The notes: a model not told the origin generated them from the letters alone. A stretch of 56,368 nucleotides of DNA from Gammaproteobacteria bacterium (GCA_013151355.1 JAADIL010000267.1:1-56368); one strand, 5' to 3'. Shown: positions 1-6,654, counted from the stretch's first letter. Numbers and translations are program-made.

Positions 1-462
1 GACTTTGGGCCATTCAGGAAAACGGCACCTGGACTCGCTGGGCACCAGAATATTCGCGCTGGGATATTTACAGTGAAAACCGCAAGTTTATCTTTGCTGA
101 CCCGACAACAGGTCAGGCTTGTTATTATGTGGATCGAGATGGCAGTGTCCATTGGAGAAACGTCGATAAAAATGAAAACAGAAGTTTTCCTGGTATTAAA
201 GCAGCGATAATCAGCGTCGGTGGAGATGGAAGACTTTGGGCCATTCAGGAAAATGGTACCTGGACTCGCTGGGCACCAGAATATTCGCGCTGGGATATTT
301 ACAGCGAAAATCGCAAGTTTATTTTTGCTGACCCGACAACAGGCCAGGCCTGTTATTATGTGGACCCGGATGGTAGTGCCCATTGGCGAAATGTCGACAA
401 AAACAAAAATAAGAATTTTCCTGGAATCAGCGCTGCTCAACTCAGTGTGGGGGGGCAATCCA
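1..462. repeat. In-frame tandem repeat with a 231-bp (77-codon) period; two copies in the window, probably more upstream
   Basis: nt 1-231 align base-for-base with nt 232-462 (both start gactttgggccattcaggaaaa). Only scattered, mostly synonymous-looking substitutions separate the copies. Confidence 0.9.
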
Positions 463-1511
463 CAGATCAGGACATTACAGGCTTACCGCTAAATTCTTTA
501 GAGAACATCCCTGCCGAAGAAACCGGGCAGATCAGGCAAATCGCCGAGATTACCGTCAAGTTACTCGACAAACGTTATCCTGCTCCGTCGACGTGTCTGC
601 GTGGTGTGCATCCCAAGTCACATGGGTGTGTGAAAGCAGTATTTGAAGTGAATGCCGATATTGCCAGGGATCTCCAGATCGGGTTATTTGCCGATCCGTG
701 CAAAGTTTACGAGGCGTGGATACGATTTTCCAATGCTGTGGGTCGACTGGGTCCTGACGTCAAGGATGGAAAAAATCAGAGCCGTGGCCTGGCCATTAAA
801 GTGATGAATGTCGGAGGTAGTGTGTTACTCGATGATAACGGGGCGCACCATCAAGATTTTTTGATGATCACTGAACCGGCTTTTGCTTTTGCCAACGTAG
901 CGGATTATCTGCGACTCAACGAAATTATTTTGGAAAACAATGAAGATATAACGCCATTTTTTACACCTCCGGAGGATGCTACCACAGAAGAAAAACTGAG
1001 AATCCAACGGACTGGCCAACTCGCTGTGCAGACCACGCAGACACTGGTTGCTAATCCTTTTGACGTTCAATATTTTGGTGCAGCACCGTTTTTGTTCGGC
1101 CCGGATCGCGTGATGAAATTTTCAGTGCTGCCTTGCGAAGGTGAACAGACGCAAGTAGTTCCCGAGAATCCGTCGGATAATTATCTTCGTGAGGCGGTGA
1201 CGGAGACGATGCATCAAAATGCGGATGTGTGTTTTGATTTTATGGTTCAGGTGCGCGGCAAAGATGAAGAAGGCTTGAATATTGAAAATGCCTCTACGGT
1301 CTGGGATGAGCAGAAATTTCCCTTTATCAAAGTCGCAAAAATTACCATTCCGGCACCCCAAAAAGATATCGATTCTCCAGCCGCCATTGAGCATTGTGAA
1401 AAACTGAGTTATTCCCCGTGGCATTCTTTAGCGGAACACCAGCCGTTGGGAGGTATCAATCGTTTGCGAAAAGCTGTGTATATAGCATCTCAAACATGCC
1501 GGGAAAAATAA
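3..1511 (+). CDS. 5'-truncated protein: tectonin-like beta-propeller repeats fused to a catalase-related (mini-catalase / allene-oxide-synthase-like) haem domain
   Basis: The reading frame is open from the window edge, and the first in-window Met is at 129. The N-terminal part is built of 77-aa units (..SVGGDGRLWAIQENGTWTRW..). The C-terminal half has a catalase-type distal-His motif (LRGVHPKSHGC) and a proximal-Tyr motif (RLRKAVY). Confidence 0.75.
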   Translation, partial: LWAIQENGTWTRWAPEYSRWDIYSENRKFIFADPTTGQACYYVDRDGSVHWRNVDKNENRSFPGIKAAIISVGGDGRLWAIQENGTWTRWAPEYSRWDIYSENRKFIFADPTTGQACYYVDPDGSAHWRNVDKNKNKNFPGISAAQLSVGGQSTDQDITGLPLNSLENIPAEETGQIRQIAEITVKLLDKRYPAPSTCLRGVHPKSHGCVKAVFEVNADIARDLQIGLFADPCKVYEAWIRFSNAVGRLGPDVKDGKNQSRGLAIKVMNVGGSVLLDDNGAHHQDFLMITEPAFAFANVADYLRLNEIILENNEDITPFFTPPEDATTEEKLRIQRTGQLAVQTTQTLVANPFDVQYFGAAPFLFGPDRVMKFSVLPCEGEQTQVVPENPSDNYLREAVTETMHQNADVCFDFMVQVRGKDEEGLNIENASTVWDEQKFPFIKVAKITIPAPQKDIDSPAAIEHCEKLSYSPWHSLAEHQPLGGINRLRKAVYIASQTCREK

Positions 1512-1804
1512 GATACCGTATATTGCATAGCTCATAAAACAGTATACTGATACTTGGACTCTGTGCTTGTGTTTCGTGTAGCGAGATAACACTTTTCGGC
1601 TACACTTAACGTTGTCATTCGCTCTGCGAATCAATATCGTGCATTGTGCAAACACGATGATTTTCAGGGCTCAGGTAATACAGGATAAAAATGAAGTATA
1701 AAGCAGGTGTTCCAGGCGACAGTCAATTATCTGCTGCCTGGGCTGGCCTCCGAAGTATGTGGGTCAGTAGTGAAATTTTAATATATTAATCAAAGGATAG
1801 ATTT

Positions 1805-1888
1805 GTGAAAAAAATAATTTTGTTGCTTGGTGCAGCGGTTGTCATTGGTATATTCGCCATATTCTACATAAACAAAAAAGTCCTGTAG
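1805..1888 (+). other. Short ORF encoding a signal-anchor peptide; probably the displaced N-terminus of the downstream di-haem cytochrome
   Basis: A GTG at 1805 is preceded by AAGGA 7 nt upstream and encodes VKKIILLLGAAVVIGIFAIFYINKKVL*. It stops just after an A6 run (1874-1879). The downstream cytochrome frame is open from 1801. Confidence 0.5.
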
Positions 1889-1908
1889 AAACGCCTGTAG
1901 CAAGCTCT

Positions 1909-3534
1909 GTGGAAAGTCCTGTACCTGTAAAAAATCCTGTAGTGGCTGATTATGACGTAGCTTATCTGGATCAAAACTGGAGCGATGAGATCCGTAACGA
2001 ATGGTGGTACACCGGGCAAGGTTCCTGGTTGCTCCCCTATGACTGGTTTCGCGTGCTGGAACAAGCCGGCAGTGAGGAACGTTTGAGTTCCGATAAAAAT
2101 ATGGAACGCCTGGGTTTTATCTCTGGTTCAAAAAATAATAAATGGAATCCAGACAGTCTCCCTGTTGGATTTGTTAAGGAGGCCGATCCGAAATCGAAAG
2201 AAACGTATCTTGGTGTTACCTGTGCAGCCTGTCACACGAGTCAGGTTGAGTATCAAGGGAAGCGGTTTATTGTGGAAGGTGGACCAGCCCTCGCTGATTT
2301 TGATCGTTTCATCACAGAGATTGCGGAAGCATTGCAAGCGACACTGGATGATGATAACAAGTTCAAACGTTTGACTGATAATTACTTCGATGGTACCTAC
2401 AATCCGGCTAAGGCAAAGGAACTGAAAAACCAGATGGCAAAAGTATCTGCGGATTTCAATGCCCGGGTTGAACGCAATCGTCCTCCTCATCCGAATGGCT
2501 ATGGTCGACTTGATGCCTTTGGCAACATCTTCAACGAGGTAGTGGTGACTGCAATCAATGAGCCGGGTAACGTCAATGTAGTCAATGCTCCTGTGTCCTA
2601 TCCTGTGTTGTGGGATACACCACAACACGATGTTGTGCAGTGGAACGGGGCGGCTGTAAATGCAGGAATCGGACCTTATGTGCGTAATGCCGGTGAGGTG
2701 GTGGGTGTATTTGGCGGTGTGCATATTGAGAAGGCAGTTGATGGGTCGCCAGGGGAGTTACAGTATCGCCATCACATTAACCTTGAAAATCTGAAGCGTT
2801 TGGAAGATATACTGATCACCCTCTGGTCTCCGGTGTGGCCTGAAACCTTGTTGCCCGCTATTGACCAGGAGAAGGCCGAGCGAGGCAAGAGTTATTACGA
2901 CAAACTGTGTTTGAGCTGCCACGAAACTATTGACCGAAAGGACCCCGGTCGTCAGATCACGGCAAAGATTGTTCCACTGAAGGAAATCGGTACGGACCCG
3001 GTTATGGCGGAAAACAGTACCAGTGGCATATCCAGAACGGGGATTCTGGAAGGGCAGCCGAAGCTTCCGTTACCCGGTGTGCCTGCGTTTGGGCCGGAAG
3101 CCCCTTCGGGTGAACTGGTGGGCAATGTGATTGTCAACATCTTGTTTCAGGAATTGCCTAAAATGTTGGGACCGGATGCGTTTAAAAATGATCTGGGCGA
3201 GTTTCTTCAGGCAAAAAAGAAATACAGTACCGTCCCGCTGGGCTACAAGGCGCGACCTCTGAATGGTATTTGGGCCTCTGCTCCTTTCCTGCATAACGGC
3301 TCTGTAGCCAGTCTTTGGGAATTGTTGAAAAAACCTGATGAGCGTATGCGTCAGTTTTATGTTGGGAATAATGAACTGGATCCTGTTCATGTCGGGTTCA
3401 GTATTAGTGATGGACCACTCACCAGTAAATTTGATGCTGCTCTGACTGGTAACTCGAATCAAGGTCATGACTATGGCACCGATCTAAGCGATGCAAACAA
3501 ACTGGAATTGATTGAGTACATCAAAACGCTGTAA
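1909..3534 (+). CDS. RoxA-like / di-haem cytochrome c peroxidase-family protein (apparently frameshifted at its 5' end)
   Basis: It has two CXXCH haem-c motifs (GVTCAACHTS and KLCLSCHET). The N-terminal region is family-typical (YLDQNWSDEIRNEWWYTGQGSWLLPYDWFRVLEQ). The ORF as called has no signal peptide. Confidence 0.8.
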   Translation: MESPVPVKNPVVADYDVAYLDQNWSDEIRNEWWYTGQGSWLLPYDWFRVLEQAGSEERLSSDKNMERLGFISGSKNNKWNPDSLPVGFVKEADPKSKETYLGVTCAACHTSQVEYQGKRFIVEGGPALADFDRFITEIAEALQATLDDDNKFKRLTDNYFDGTYNPAKAKELKNQMAKVSADFNARVERNRPPHPNGYGRLDAFGNIFNEVVVTAINEPGNVNVVNAPVSYPVLWDTPQHDVVQWNGAAVNAGIGPYVRNAGEVVGVFGGVHIEKAVDGSPGELQYRHHINLENLKRLEDILITLWSPVWPETLLPAIDQEKAERGKSYYDKLCLSCHETIDRKDPGRQITAKIVPLKEIGTDPVMAENSTSGISRTGILEGQPKLPLPGVPAFGPEAPSGELVGNVIVNILFQELPKMLGPDAFKNDLGEFLQAKKKYSTVPLGYKARPLNGIWASAPFLHNGSVASLWELLKKPDERMRQFYVGNNELDPVHVGFSISDGPLTSKFDAALTGNSNQGHDYGTDLSDANKLELIEYIKTL

Positions 3535-3568
3535 CCCCGGGGGAACTGTACAAAGGAGATAAAGAACG

Positions 3569-4549
3569 ATGGGAAAAAATATCGTGGTTTGTTGCGATGG
3601 AACAGGCAATGAATACGGAGACAATAATACCAACGTTGTGAATATGTATGCTCGAATTATTCGTGATGCCGATCAAATGACTTACTATGACCCAGGTGTT
3701 GGGACCTTCAGTGTTTTGGGTCGCACCCTGGGAAAGAAAGTGGGTGTCATGTTGGGTAATGCTTTTGGCTACGGCCTGCAAGCAAACATCGAAGATGCTT
3801 ATGAATATCTTATGGATAAATATGAACCAGGGGACAAATTATTTCTGTTCGGTTTCAGTCGTGGAGCGTTCACGGTACGCGCCCTGGCCGGTATGCTCCA
3901 TAAGGTCGGACTTTTGCAAAAGGGTAGCAAGAACCTGATTCCCTATGCGAGTAAAATCTACAATACCCATGGTAATGACAGCATTGCCACGGGATTTAAA
4001 GCAACTTACAGTCATGACTGCAAACCTCACTTTATAGGGGTTTGGGATACAGTGGCCTCCCTTGGATGGTTTTATGGTAAACAGTTTTTCAATGCCAGGC
4101 TCAATCCTGATGTAGAAAATTCTTATCAGGCTATCGCCATTGATGAAAAGCGTAAAAAATTCCCTGTCAGTTTATGGGATGAAAGTAATCAGGTGTCAAA
4201 TCAAACGGTTGAGCAGGTCTGGTTTGCGGGAGTTCATTCTGACGTGGGAGGATCGTATGAACAGCGCGGTCTTTCCAACATTACTTTGATATGGATGTTG
4301 GCAGTTGCTGAAATTCACGGATTACGGCTTAACGAAGACTGGAAAGAACAGATGCATCCGGACCCCTTGGGCAAGTTACATAATTCGCGCACCGGTTTAT
4401 GGCGATTATGGCCGATGGCGACGCGAACGATACCAGAAGGTGCCAAAATCCATAAAAGCGTTCTGGTGCGAGAAAAAGCAATAGAGGGTTATACTCCTGT
4501 GCTCCCAAAGGACTACAAAGAAGTAGAAACACCGGTGGTTGCAGAGTAG
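3569..4549 (+). CDS. DUF2235-family alpha/beta hydrolase (Tle1-like phospholipase fold)
   Basis: The N-terminus is IVVCCDGTGNEY..TNVV, the nucleophile elbow is LFGFSRGAFTVRALAGM, and GVWDTVASLG is also present. An AAGGAGA Shine-Dalgarno sequence lies upstream. Confidence 0.85.
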   Translation: MGKNIVVCCDGTGNEYGDNNTNVVNMYARIIRDADQMTYYDPGVGTFSVLGRTLGKKVGVMLGNAFGYGLQANIEDAYEYLMDKYEPGDKLFLFGFSRGAFTVRALAGMLHKVGLLQKGSKNLIPYASKIYNTHGNDSIATGFKATYSHDCKPHFIGVWDTVASLGWFYGKQFFNARLNPDVENSYQAIAIDEKRKKFPVSLWDESNQVSNQTVEQVWFAGVHSDVGGSYEQRGLSNITLIWMLAVAEIHGLRLNEDWKEQMHPDPLGKLHNSRTGLWRLWPMATRTIPEGAKIHKSVLVREKAIEGYTPVLPKDYKEVETPVVAE

Positions 4550-4646
4550 TAGCAGATTCTGCAACCTGGATTGCGCTAAAACATCTGAAACTATCTGTTG
4601 GCACCGCTGGACAAGTGGATGACGCCGACTATGCAACAAACGGGAA

Positions 4647-4673
4647 GTCTGGGAGCCTGTCGGGCTCCCAGAC
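4647..4673. terminator. GC-rich hairpin between convergent genes (possible bidirectional terminator)
   Basis: An 11-bp perfect stem (gtctgggagcc / ggctcccagac) closes a 5-nt loop. The T-rich tracts on both sides are only moderate. Confidence 0.5.
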
Positions 4674-4807
4674 CTTGGCTTTTGTACCGATTGTGTGGGT
4701 AACTTTTCTGATTCGTAACGGTATCCGGCAAGGTTACGGTAGTCCTGTCGGTTAAATTCTTTGAGGATCTATTCCCCGTACGTTCCTTATTATTAATTTC
4801 CGGGAGA

Positions 4808-6076
4808 TTAAATCATTCCTGCAAAAGGCTGTACCTTTACCCATTCACCGGCCTTAATCGTTTCTTTTTCTGCGGGTAATTCAATAAAACAGTTTGCTTT
4901 TCCCATGGAGCTTAAAATCCCGGAGCCTTGCGCGCCAGTGGAACGTACTACTGTCTCGCCATTGGTATTGCTGATAATGCCACGCTGAAACTCCAGTCGG
5001 CCAATACGCTTCTTCAACGTTGTTTCACAACGTAAATACAGGTATTTCGGGGCGACATCGTCGATGCCCATCATGCGTAATAATGCGGGTTGCACAAACT
5101 GGTAAAAGGTGACCATGGCTGATACCGGGTTGCCCGGTAGACCAAAAAACTGACAATGACCCACACGGCCGAATGCCAGTGGGCGGCCAGGCTTCATGGC
5201 GATCTTCCAGAATCCGACTTCTCCCAGTTTCTCCAGCGTTTCTTTTACAAAGTCGGCCTCACCTACTGAAACGCCTCCCGTTGTCACCAATACATCCGCT
5301 TCGGTAGTTGCCCGTTGAAAGGCTTCTTCCACACGTTCACGTTGATCAGGAATAACACCCATATCAATAAAATCGACATCCAGGCGTCGCAACATGCCGT
5401 ACAAAGTATAGCGGTTGCTGTCATAAATTTGTCCATCTTTCAGGGATTGCCCAACGTTGCACAGTTCATCACCTGTTGAGAAGAAAATAACTTTTATTCG
5501 CTTGAAAACAGAAACTTCGGCGACTCCCATGGAGGCCAGCATTCCCAGGTCAGCCGGTGTCAAGCGTGTGCCGGGTTGAAAAACCACATCACCTCTGGCG
5601 AGGTCTTCTCCGGCCTGACGAACGTTTTGTTTGGCGTGATGCCCTGGAGAAATACTGATAGTTTTTTCAGTATCATTACGCTGCACATGCTCCTGCATTA
5701 TCACTGTGTCGGCCCCGGTTGGCATCTTCCCGCCCGTCATGATACGAGCACATTCTCCCGTGGCAATGTGAATACCCAGTGGCTTTCCCGCCATAATGGT
5801 ACCTGCAATGGCAAGTTTTTTTGTGCCGGTTGCGGGTATGTCGGTACCTGAAACAGCATAACCGTCCATGGCGGAGTTAGTGTGCGAAGGGACATCGATT
5901 ATAGACTTTATTGAGTCTGCCAATACGCGGTTTAGTGCTTCACGAATCGCTAAATGTTCGACATTGCCAGGCGGGTTTATTGATTCCAGTATTTTGTTGC
6001 GTGCTTGCTCAACCTGTAACGAATGGAGGGCAAGTTCATCGCAGCCGGGCAGGGGAGGGGAGTTTTTATCAGACAT
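4808..6076 (-). CDS. moeA: Molybdopterin molybdenumtransferase MoeA
   Basis: The full-length match to the MoeA family is typical (..SAMDGYAV.., ..TTGGVSVGEADF.., ..KPGRPLAFG..). It lies next to mobB and mobA. Confidence 0.9.
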   Translation of the reverse strand: MSDKNSPPLPGCDELALHSLQVEQARNKILESINPPGNVEHLAIREALNRVLADSIKSIIDVPSHTNSAMDGYAVSGTDIPATGTKKLAIAGTIMAGKPLGIHIATGECARIMTGGKMPTGADTVIMQEHVQRNDTEKTISISPGHHAKQNVRQAGEDLARGDVVFQPGTRLTPADLGMLASMGVAEVSVFKRIKVIFFSTGDELCNVGQSLKDGQIYDSNRYTLYGMLRRLDVDFIDMGVIPDQRERVEEAFQRATTEADVLVTTGGVSVGEADFVKETLEKLGEVGFWKIAMKPGRPLAFGRVGHCQFFGLPGNPVSAMVTFYQFVQPALLRMMGIDDVAPKYLYLRCETTLKKRIGRLEFQRGIISNTNGETVVRSTGAQGSGILSSMGKANCFIELPAEKETIKAGEWVKVQPFAGMI

Positions 6077-6105: not shown

Positions 6106-6654
6106 TTAACACAAGTTTAAGGAAAAGTGCTGAATAATGAATTGTGATATCTGCTTGATATCGTTGATGTCGAGAAGGGTTACACTGTCTTTTGTTGCAA
6201 GTGGTGTATCCGTTGCAACGGCAATAATATCAGGATCTGATAAAAACATGGGCTCCTGATCGCGTTTTGGGGAGTATGCCGCAGCACGGTAAACCTCAAT
6301 TTTTGGAAAGTGTTCAAATTTAAACCCTTCAATCAGGATAATGTCCAGGGTGGCCTGGTCCAGTGGTTTGAGCAGTGTGTTTAATGCCACCTCATGCTCC
6401 GGCTGTTCATTCTCACTGATCATCGCCCATCGGTGTTTTGATGCAATAAGAACTTGTGTGGCACCGGACATGCGTAATTCATAGCTGTCTTTACCGGGTT
6501 TATCAATCTCAAAATCATGGTGGGAATGTTTTATAGCGGCTACTTTAAAGCCCTCTGATTTTAGTCTGGTAATCAGTGCTTTTAATAATTGTGTCTTTCC
6601 CGTACCACTGGGCGCAACAAAACCGACAACAGGCACTGTGGCATTGCTTAACAT
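6106..6654 (-). CDS. mobB: Molybdopterin-guanine dinucleotide biosynthesis adapter MobB
   Basis: It has a P-loop (GFVAPSGTGKTQL), the size is typical of MobB, and it overlaps the 3' end of mobA. Confidence 0.85.
   Translation of the reverse strand: MLSNATVPVVGFVAPSGTGKTQLLKALITRLKSEGFKVAAIKHSHHDFEIDKPGKDSYELRMSGATQVLIASKHRWAMISENEQPEHEVALNTLLKPLDQATLDIILIEGFKFEHFPKIEVYRAAAYSPKRDQEPMFLSDPDIIAVATDTPLATKDSVTLLDINDIKQISQFIIQHFSLNLC

Follow-up and report, generated by a model that had tools for sequence, protein, structure and literature searches.

The beginning of a 56,368-nucleotide (nt) stretch of DNA from a Gammaproteobacteria bacterium (GCA_013151355.1 JAADIL010000267.1:1-56368), called here the window, carries three co-directional genes on the plus strand. 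Gene 1 (3..1511) encodes lectin-like repeats followed by a catalase-related haem domain. Gene 2, with its main open reading frame (ORF) at 1909..3534, encodes a RoxA-like di-haem cytochrome c, and gene 3 (3569..4549) a DUF2235/Tle1-like serine hydrolase of 326 amino acids (aa). A first-pass annotation had described this arrangement and had read it as a secreted module for the oxidation of lipids or isoprenoids. The arrangement itself holds. We show here that the catalase-like and the di-haem genes form a pair that recurs in many bacteria, and that lipase genes are found repeatedly beside it. Its probable role is the oxidation of lipids of the membrane type or the handling of lipid peroxides.

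Gene 1 joins tectonin-like repeats to a mini-catalase domain

The window corresponds to contig C124 of an assembly of 2.9 Mb (84% complete), and its start is the end of the contig. Gene 1 is truly cut off there, leaving 502 aa visible. The first-pass annotation had proposed to complete the gene from upstream sequence, however this part is absent from the assembly, and a contig search found the repeat on no other contig. What remains begins with two tandem units of 231 bp (77 aa) at 3..464, reported by Tandem Repeats Finder with a period of 231 bp, 1.8 copies and an 89% DNA match. The units are identical in 66 of 77 residues and together would make up four tectonin-like propeller blades. The tectonin and Hyd_WA models of Pfam do not match these repeats even at E <= 5. 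Nevertheless, the folded repeat domain (predicted local distance difference test, pLDDT, of the model 86.7) has its best match in Tectonin 2 of Laccaria bicolor (5fsb; E 2.6e-8, template modelling score, TM, 0.72, root-mean-square deviation 2.7 Å), and fishelectin (4ruq) is also among the fold matches. Since 5fsb is the best fold match despite the missing Pfam match, the earlier description of the repeats as tectonin-like is right at the level of the modelled fold. Tectonin 2 (5fsb, 5fsc) is six-bladed and binds O-methylated sugars. The predicted lectin of gene 1 differs from it in sequence (19% identity), in having no Pfam tectonin match and in being fused to an enzyme domain.

Relatives indicate how much of gene 1 is missing. 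A genome of the same genus (locus L011; labelled Ectothiorhodospiraceae bacterium NORP100 at NCBI) encodes a relative that is complete, with 585 aa and three repeat units (1155-2912), and the relative in locus L002 has about three (5105-5850). The three 77-aa units of L011 add up to 231 aa, compared to 226 aa for the six-bladed Tectonin 2. Because a relative from the same genus has three units and the size of this propeller, gene 1 here probably lacks one repeat unit and its start, and would have six blades when whole. Two metagenome versions of the gene have two units and one unit, respectively, and these may be collapsed assemblies.

A disordered linker connects the repeats to a C-terminal catalase-related domain of about 340 aa (483..1508), supported by invariant columns, a residue census, fold matches to 3e4w and 1u5u and a profile alignment to catalase and to MAP-2744c. 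The Pfam Catalase profile (PF00199) reaches 24 bits, just short of its cut-off of 25, and no more than its positions 45-112 (of 383) are aligned, hence the full-length match above threshold that is typical for a monofunctional catalase is not found. The AlphaFold model of the domain has a pLDDT of 86.5, with a core above 90. In Foldseek searches the nearest structures are 3e4w (MAP-2744c, 33 kDa, E 3e-14) and the coral allene oxide synthase 1u5u, while full catalases rank lower. The domain has the catalase core fold and is devoid of the C-terminal extensions of full catalases, as expected for a mini-catalase. The catalase-related haem domain of the first-pass annotation is thereby confirmed.

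The active-site residues of this fold are in place. The distal His203 (nt 609-611), the proximal Tyr493 (nt 1479-1481) and its partner Arg489 are invariant in an alignment of 13 sequences (A1) and conserved to at least 90% in one of 70 sequences (A4). In the profile alignment the motif R-G-V-H-P-K of gene 1 falls on the distal-His motif R-R-M-H-A-K of catalase. The distal dyad is Val-His in the window and in 119 of the 120 listed homologues. A difference is seen at the position that we equate, by our own motif alignment, with the distal Asn of catalase (N-x-P-x-F): Asn is present nearly everywhere in the family (IN[QT]P), whereas the clade of the window has Thr (ITEP; Thr290, nt 870-872), both in lectin-fused and in unfused members. 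Thus, Thr290 appears to be a lineage-specific active-site change. Together with the mini-catalase fold and the score below the Pfam cut-off, it speaks against an ordinary catalase, and an ordinary catalase would have counted against the first-pass reading.

Gene 2 encodes a RoxA-like di-haem cytochrome c with a broken reading frame

The main ORF of gene 2 contains two CXXCH haem motifs, CAACH105 (nt 2221-2235) and CLSCH334 (nt 2908-2922), and a MauG-type motif, PFLH462NGSV (nt 3283-3312). A further motif, GHDY at 519, aligns with the GGHDF motif of RoxA, which contains H641, the second axial His of the C-terminal haem. The NCBIfam model NF040606 (CytoC_perox, 'di-heme-cytochrome C peroxidase') matches over its entire length (positions 1-524 of 524) with 584.9 bits against a cut-off of 150, and the Pfam family PF21419 (RoxA-like_Cyt-c) matches as well. 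No match to PF03150 (CCP_MauG) is found at E <= 0.01, and by Pfam the protein is thus not of the CcpA/MauG type, which the first-pass annotation had named as a refuting outcome. Control genomes contain no NF040606 match, and their only PF21419 match (E. coli) lies below the cut-off. The sole solved structure that gene 2 matches is RoxA (4b2n, E 2.3e-13); the phmmer alignment consists of three short blocks outside the F317/W302 region. Both CXXCH motifs, the MauG-type motif and the equivalent of H641 are shared with RoxA. However, gene 2 is not RoxA itself: the models for RoxA (NF050033; cut-off 1000), RoxB (cut-off 900) and RoxC (cut-off 900) reach no more than 70.4, 68.3 and 61.1 bits, respectively, and the protein is shorter (about 575 aa including its anchor, compared to about 680 aa) and predicted to be membrane-tethered, while RoxA is secreted. 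The earlier label RoxA-like stands. Proteins of the RoxA type give poor expression in E. coli (PMC6311187).

The 5' end of gene 2 is detached from the main ORF. A piece at 1806..1888 on the plus strand (MKKIILLLGAAVVIGIFAIFYINKKVL) encodes a signal anchor, MKKIILLLGAAVVIGIFAIFYINKK, in a frame different from that of the main ORF. The break lies at a run of six A residues (1874..1879), located by direct reading and by homologue alignment, and one A fewer would rejoin anchor and main ORF. Because the loci L002, L003 and L011 carry the anchor N-terminus in frame with the mature protein, the start at 1909 is an artefact of a +1 frame break. The remaining ORF of 541 codons is intact, so that the break is due either to a homopolymer error or to a lesion of very recent origin. 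Whichever cause applies, the native protein is predicted to be an exported, membrane-tethered cytochrome facing the periplasm. Lipobox-like N-termini are found in the di-haem protein of L002 and in a paralogue on contig C43 of the assembly. This second NF040606 protein (L094 3567-5519, minus strand) has 650 aa and a lipoprotein-type signal (…VISVAGC), and no catalase-like or lipase gene lies nearby. In genes 1 and 3 no signal peptide was found. The idea of a secreted module thus applies to the di-haem protein, in the form of a membrane-tethered protein on the periplasmic side, and not to the products of genes 1 and 3.

Gene 3 encodes a DUF2235 hydrolase

Gene 3 starts 34 bp past the end of gene 2 and has its own ribosome site, AAAGGAGA. 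PF09994 matches with 259 bits over profile positions 1-285 of 287, and the motifs GFSRG (at 95), WDTV (at 159) and HSDVGG (at 223) are present, the first containing the nucleophile Ser97 (nt 3857-3859). The assignment to the DUF2235 hydrolases made in the first-pass annotation is therefore well founded. It is the only DUF2235 gene detected in the 2.9-Mb assembly.

The catalase-like and di-haem genes form a conserved pair

The catalase-like family is large, with 1664 matches at E <= 0.001 that are mostly 350-400 aa long and labelled 'catalase family protein'. Using a profile of the catalase-like domain, we retrieved 80 genome loci from five phyla. A homologue of gene 2 adjoins the catalase-like gene in 56 of them (41 of 56 when only loci flanked by 2.5 kb or more on each side are counted). 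The orientation varies: in 33 pairs the catalase-like gene precedes the di-haem gene on the same strand, in 19 the order is reversed on the same strand, and 4 pairs are convergent. Carriers include Methylococcales (among them a Bathymodiolus symbiont), Chromatiales, Kiloniellales and other Alphaproteobacteria, Bryobacterales (Acidobacteriota), Planctomycetota and Bacteroidota.

In five Planctomycetota-type loci the two proteins are fused in frame into a single protein of 957-1103 aa, in the order signal peptide, di-haem part and catalase-like part. All five fusions keep both CXXCH motifs, the MauG-type His and the catalase His and Tyr. Four of them clearly show a Sec-type signal peptide; the listed ORF of the remaining one (L080) begins upstream of its likely start and none is readable. 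Such fusions are strong 'Rosetta stone' evidence that the catalase-like and di-haem proteins work together.

The exact trio of the window recurs as well, at 74-84% identity, in the loci L002, L003-5 and L011, which add four sequence contexts beyond the window. Co-occurrence of the three genes in other genomes, on which the first-pass annotation had staked its reading, is hence given. The flanks differ: the trio lies between metG and the rnf operon in L002, beside an integrase fragment in L003-5 and beside a reverse-transcriptase-like ORF in L011. An orthologue is present in 2 of 32 genomes of the order (the genome of the window and one other), and the module in 2 of 14 genomes of the genus. 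Because of the differing flanks and of the few genomes of the order that carry an orthologue, the trio unit behaves as a mobile accessory island. Across all loci, the conserved core is the pair of catalase-like and di-haem genes and not the trio.

Several loci deviate from these arrangements. Remnants of mobile elements lie at the module in L003 (integrase fragment, 6160-6366) and L011 (reverse-transcriptase/maturase-like ORF, 395-868), and in L007 an insertion sequence sits inside the di-haem gene. The catalase-like ORF of L083 starts with a signal peptide and the first conserved di-haem block (LDHGWTKEEREEFYFTPQGSQ), joined directly to the catalase-like domain, and looks like a fusion that lost most of its cytochrome. 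A genome of the same family (G013, contig C216; locus L226) has a distant catalase-like gene of 35% identity; in the 10 kb examined no di-haem neighbour is found, and at a distance of about 4 kb there is a DUF2235-like match, though a weak one (27%). In a genome of the same genus (G025; locus L225, 3679-10576) an N-terminal catalase-like domain is fused to LodA_N and LodA_C in a protein of 983 aa. LodA is an H2O2-producing quinoprotein oxidase, and the catalase-like domain of this fusion has Phe in place of the distal His. Its neighbours are a LodB-like flavoprotein gene on one side and a fatty acid cis/trans isomerase gene on the other.

Lipase genes and lectin modules accompany the pair

Lipase genes, either DUF2235 or class-3 lipases (PF01764, Lipase_3) or both, are found beside 10 of the 56 pairs, and most of them are confirmed by Pfam. 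DUF2235 genes occur in six pair loci and class-3 lipase genes in seven, three Methylococcales loci having both; in Methyloprofundus the Lipase_3 gene lies directly upstream of the pair. Controls lack this association. None of 120 loci (811 kb) around other RoxA-like di-haem genes, taken from among the matches listed in a scan of genome contigs with the degenerate motif PYFHNGSVP, has a lipase beside it (Fisher p = 5.9e-6), and neither has any of the 24 catalase-like loci without a di-haem gene (p = 0.03). P. aeruginosa and Steroidobacter are not among the matches listed in the motif scan. Lipases are the sole accessory genes that recur across taxa beside the pair.

Gene 3 was also considered as a defining member of the module. 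This was rejected: the genome scan listed ten relatives with 52-58% identity, from Bacteroidota, Ignavibacteria and others, and all ten stand without the pair. Since these relatives occur on their own, the lipase is an optional, recurrent accessory that was recruited to the pair and not a core member, and the view of the three genes as one conserved unit has to be given up in favour of the pair. Lectin modules are found on or beside members of the catalase-like family in several forms, as tectonin-like repeats in the clade of the window, as beta-trefoil-like N-termini (P0007, L052) and as a separate H_lectin gene (L006).

Discussion

Proteins resembling both halves of the pair are known in lipid oxygenation. 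In P. aeruginosa, PA2077 and PA2078 are periplasmic, double-size RoxA-like di-haem proteins that make and convert the 10S-hydroperoxide of oleate, forming a pair of 10S-dioxygenase and 7,10-diol synthase (PMC4496055). Gene 2 resembles these FadCcp proteins in its double size, its N-terminal export signal (out of frame here), its two CXXCH motifs and its P-x-x-HNGSV layout (PMC4496055 Table 1). A two-gene unit in which one enzyme would form a fatty-acid hydroperoxide that the next converts would be a further parallel. In contrast to the P. aeruginosa system, where both enzymes are di-haem proteins, a catalase-related haem b protein takes the second place here, and the haem motifs are 229 residues apart compared to 245. 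The coral allene oxide synthase-8R-lipoxygenase (1u5u, 3dy5) shares with gene 1 the mini-catalase fold with distal His and proximal Tyr, and its 1u5u domain is a top structural match and the best sequence match of gene 1. It is joined to a dioxygenase, a role that gene 2 may fill in our case, however its partner is a non-haem iron lipoxygenase and not a c-type di-haem protein, its dyad is Thr-His and not Val-His, and the identity is about 18%. Catalase-related/lipoxygenase fusions also exist in cyanobacteria. The nearest structure, MAP-2744c of Mycobacterium avium subsp. paratuberculosis (3e4w, 3e4y; TM 0.71 on target, best profile match E 2.5e-7), is likewise bacterial, a small stand-alone catalase core, but it has no lectin domain and shares about 18% identity with gene 1. 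We know of no di-haem partner of MAP-2744c.

On this background we tentatively favour, at somewhat less than even confidence, the reading that a widespread module of two haem enzymes, of which the three genes represent one form, acts on unsaturated acyl lipids by oxygenation and hydroperoxide conversion. The DUF2235 hydrolase would free or trim acyl chains, a task that a class-3 lipase or both types would take over in other lineages. The membrane-tethered, periplasm-facing RoxA/FadCcp-like cytochrome would then oxygenate the unsaturated chain to a hydroperoxide, which the Tyr-ligated mini-catalase protein would convert or reduce, and in the lineage of the window the six-bladed tectonin-type propeller would hold the mini-catalase on a glycan-bearing surface. 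We infer this substrate, the order of steps from lipase to di-haem oxygenase to mini-catalase converter and the products, since PA2077/PA2078 and the catalase-related/lipoxygenase fusions are the closest functional precedents. The link to lipids gains support because two unrelated lipase families recur beside the pair and because oleate-oxygenating RoxA-like proteins are known (PMC4496055). The first-pass annotation had left open whether lipids or isoprenoids are the substrate; the lipid half of this suggestion gains from the recurring lipases, and nothing specific was found in support of polyisoprene.

A wider proposal is possible, although we hold it doubtful: an oxylipin-type pathway may exist in many bacteria, in which a RoxA-like di-haem protein replaces the lipoxygenase and a Tyr-ligated mini-catalase converts the hydroperoxide. 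Such a pathway would parallel, by convergence, the allene oxide synthase-lipoxygenase fusion of the coral; in some lineages its two enzymes are fused into one exported three-haem protein, and in the case described here a tectonin lectin would aim them at glycan-bearing surfaces and a lipase would feed them. Both superfamilies and the logic of a dioxygenase followed by a hydroperoxide-converting haem enzyme were known before. Our literature search found no description of the pair of catalase-like and di-haem proteins.

Several observations weigh against acyl-lipid oxygenation by the module. The topology is inconsistent: in the clade of the window neither the catalase-like protein nor the lipase has a signal peptide, but export of the di-haem protein is required, so that the intermediate would have to cross the membrane. 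Elsewhere in the family the catalase-like protein carries a signal peptide of its own or forms part of a fusion on the exported side. A Thr-His dyad is said to be the hallmark of the distal site in allene oxide synthase, and the family has Val-His instead, as in true catalases. A lipase is detectable near only 18% of the pairs, and the ten listed relatives of gene 3 stand apart from the pair. The broken gene 2 may be inactive in the window. Moreover, the activities of all family members are predicted, and the relation to PA2077/PA2078 is drawn from motifs and the shared RoxA match.

The same proteins could have a different role. Both haem proteins could be peroxidases that repair or detoxify lipid hydroperoxides in the membrane; here they would sit on opposite faces of the inner membrane, in the fusions both outside it, and the lipase would cut out oxidised acyl chains. 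This would explain the variable topology without a passing intermediate, peroxide chemistry is compatible with the Val-His dyad, and the lipase association fits this role too. The nearest structure, MAP-2744c, reportedly is a peroxidase acting on organic hydroperoxides. Still, we regard such a repair system as unlikely. Methanotrophs, which are among the carriers, make mostly monounsaturated lipids, and such lipids peroxidise poorly. The patchy presence, in 2 of 14 genomes of the genus, would be odd for a housekeeping system, and the lectin fusions are hard to account for. The latter also count, together with the fusions of the two enzymes, against a general H2O2 defence by a periplasmic cytochrome c peroxidase and a small catalase with the lipase as unrelated neighbour, since neither is expected for bulk H2O2 removal. 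The family name of NF040606 suggests such a defence, the catalase-like domain keeps His, Tyr and Arg with the Val-His dyad, and the LodA fusion from the same genus suggests that such domains can accompany peroxide makers. However, PF03150 does not match gene 2, the Catalase score stays under the cut-off, the distal Asn is lost in the clade of the window and the lipase enrichment is significant. Gene 2 is also RoxA-like and about 575 aa long, while canonical peroxidases have 35-40 kDa (PMC4496055). We therefore consider bulk H2O2 removal distinctly improbable.

The resemblance to RoxA brings up oxidative cleavage of polyisoprenoids, such as rubber-like polymers, carotenoids, squalene or hopanoids. 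RoxA 4b2n is the only solved structure that gene 2 matches, and haem motifs, MauG motif and the equivalent of H641 are common to both. Yet the models of RoxA, RoxB and RoxC yield 61-70 bits where 900-1000 are required, the alignment is limited to three short blocks, and the recurrent partners are acyl-ester lipases and not isoprenoid enzymes. Moreover, rubber degraders secrete RoxA as a soluble enzyme, whereas the product of gene 2 is predicted to be membrane-tethered. Polyisoprenoid cleavage is accordingly very unlikely. Less credible still is a role as cargo of the type VI secretion system (T6SS) encoded in the same window, with the Tle1-like hydrolase, and possibly the lectin-catalase protein too, as effectors without signal peptide. 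PF09994 is the catalytic domain of Tle1 effectors, and gene 3 has the GxSxG, DTV and HSDVGG motifs of Tle1 phospholipases (6sjl, 9j3f). Genes 1 and 3 are without signal peptides, and yet gene 1 carries an extracellular-type lectin. A T6SS cluster (ClpV, TssG, TssF and further genes; window 13013-40182) starts about 8.5 kb from gene 3. Against an effector role, no VgrG, PAAR or immunity gene is adjacent, the neighbours being the haem genes and moeA, and the conserved partners are haem enzymes. No T6SS gene lies within 8 kb of the trio of L002, which sits between metG and rnf, and gene 3 is only a 326-aa core while the matched solved Tle1-type chains have 560-779 aa. A MauG-like maturation, in which the di-haem protein would modify the catalase-like protein post-translationally by a cross-link or a haem modification, would come as an equal surprise. 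The MauG-type motif in gene 2 is suggestive, and close adjacency and fusion are what maturase-target pairs typically show, but in the clade of the window and in many others the membrane is predicted to separate the two proteins, stand-alone paralogues such as that on contig C43 exist, and the lipase link would be left unexplained.

Very few bacterial systems with oxylipin chemistry are known, namely lipoxygenases, the diol synthase of P. aeruginosa and some cyanobacterial catalase-lipoxygenase fusions. If the pair oxygenates lipids, this field would gain a new enzyme pairing, two large families that so far have a name only (NF040606 and 'catalase family protein') would obtain functions, and the three-haem fusion protein would be a tractable subject of study. 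Repair of lipid peroxides by the pair would likewise be new for bacteria. Thus, what began as a guess from one window can now be tested as a comparative pattern, and carriers such as Methylobacter luteus and Denitrobaculum tricleocarpae are cultivable. Methanotrophs, one of them a mussel symbiont, and relatives of sulfur oxidisers are among the organisms concerned.

Surroundings of the module and a related locus

The Rfam scan of positions 1-5000 gave no match to an RNA element, a promoter scan found no more sites than expected from shuffled sequence, and PADLOC, which searches for anti-phage defence, matched none of the three proteins. Downstream of gene 3 a bidirectional terminator-like hairpin with a stem of 12-13 bp (4645..4675) lies before the convergent moeA gene and closes the unit. 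The genes moeA, mobB, mobA and greB and genes for TPR proteins occupy the space between gene 3 and the T6SS cluster. In locus L006 (3221-8607), a catalase-like protein with a transthyretin-like N-terminus and the H_lectin gene are followed by two different di-haem genes in tandem, an order of di-haem genes that recalls PA2077-PA2078.

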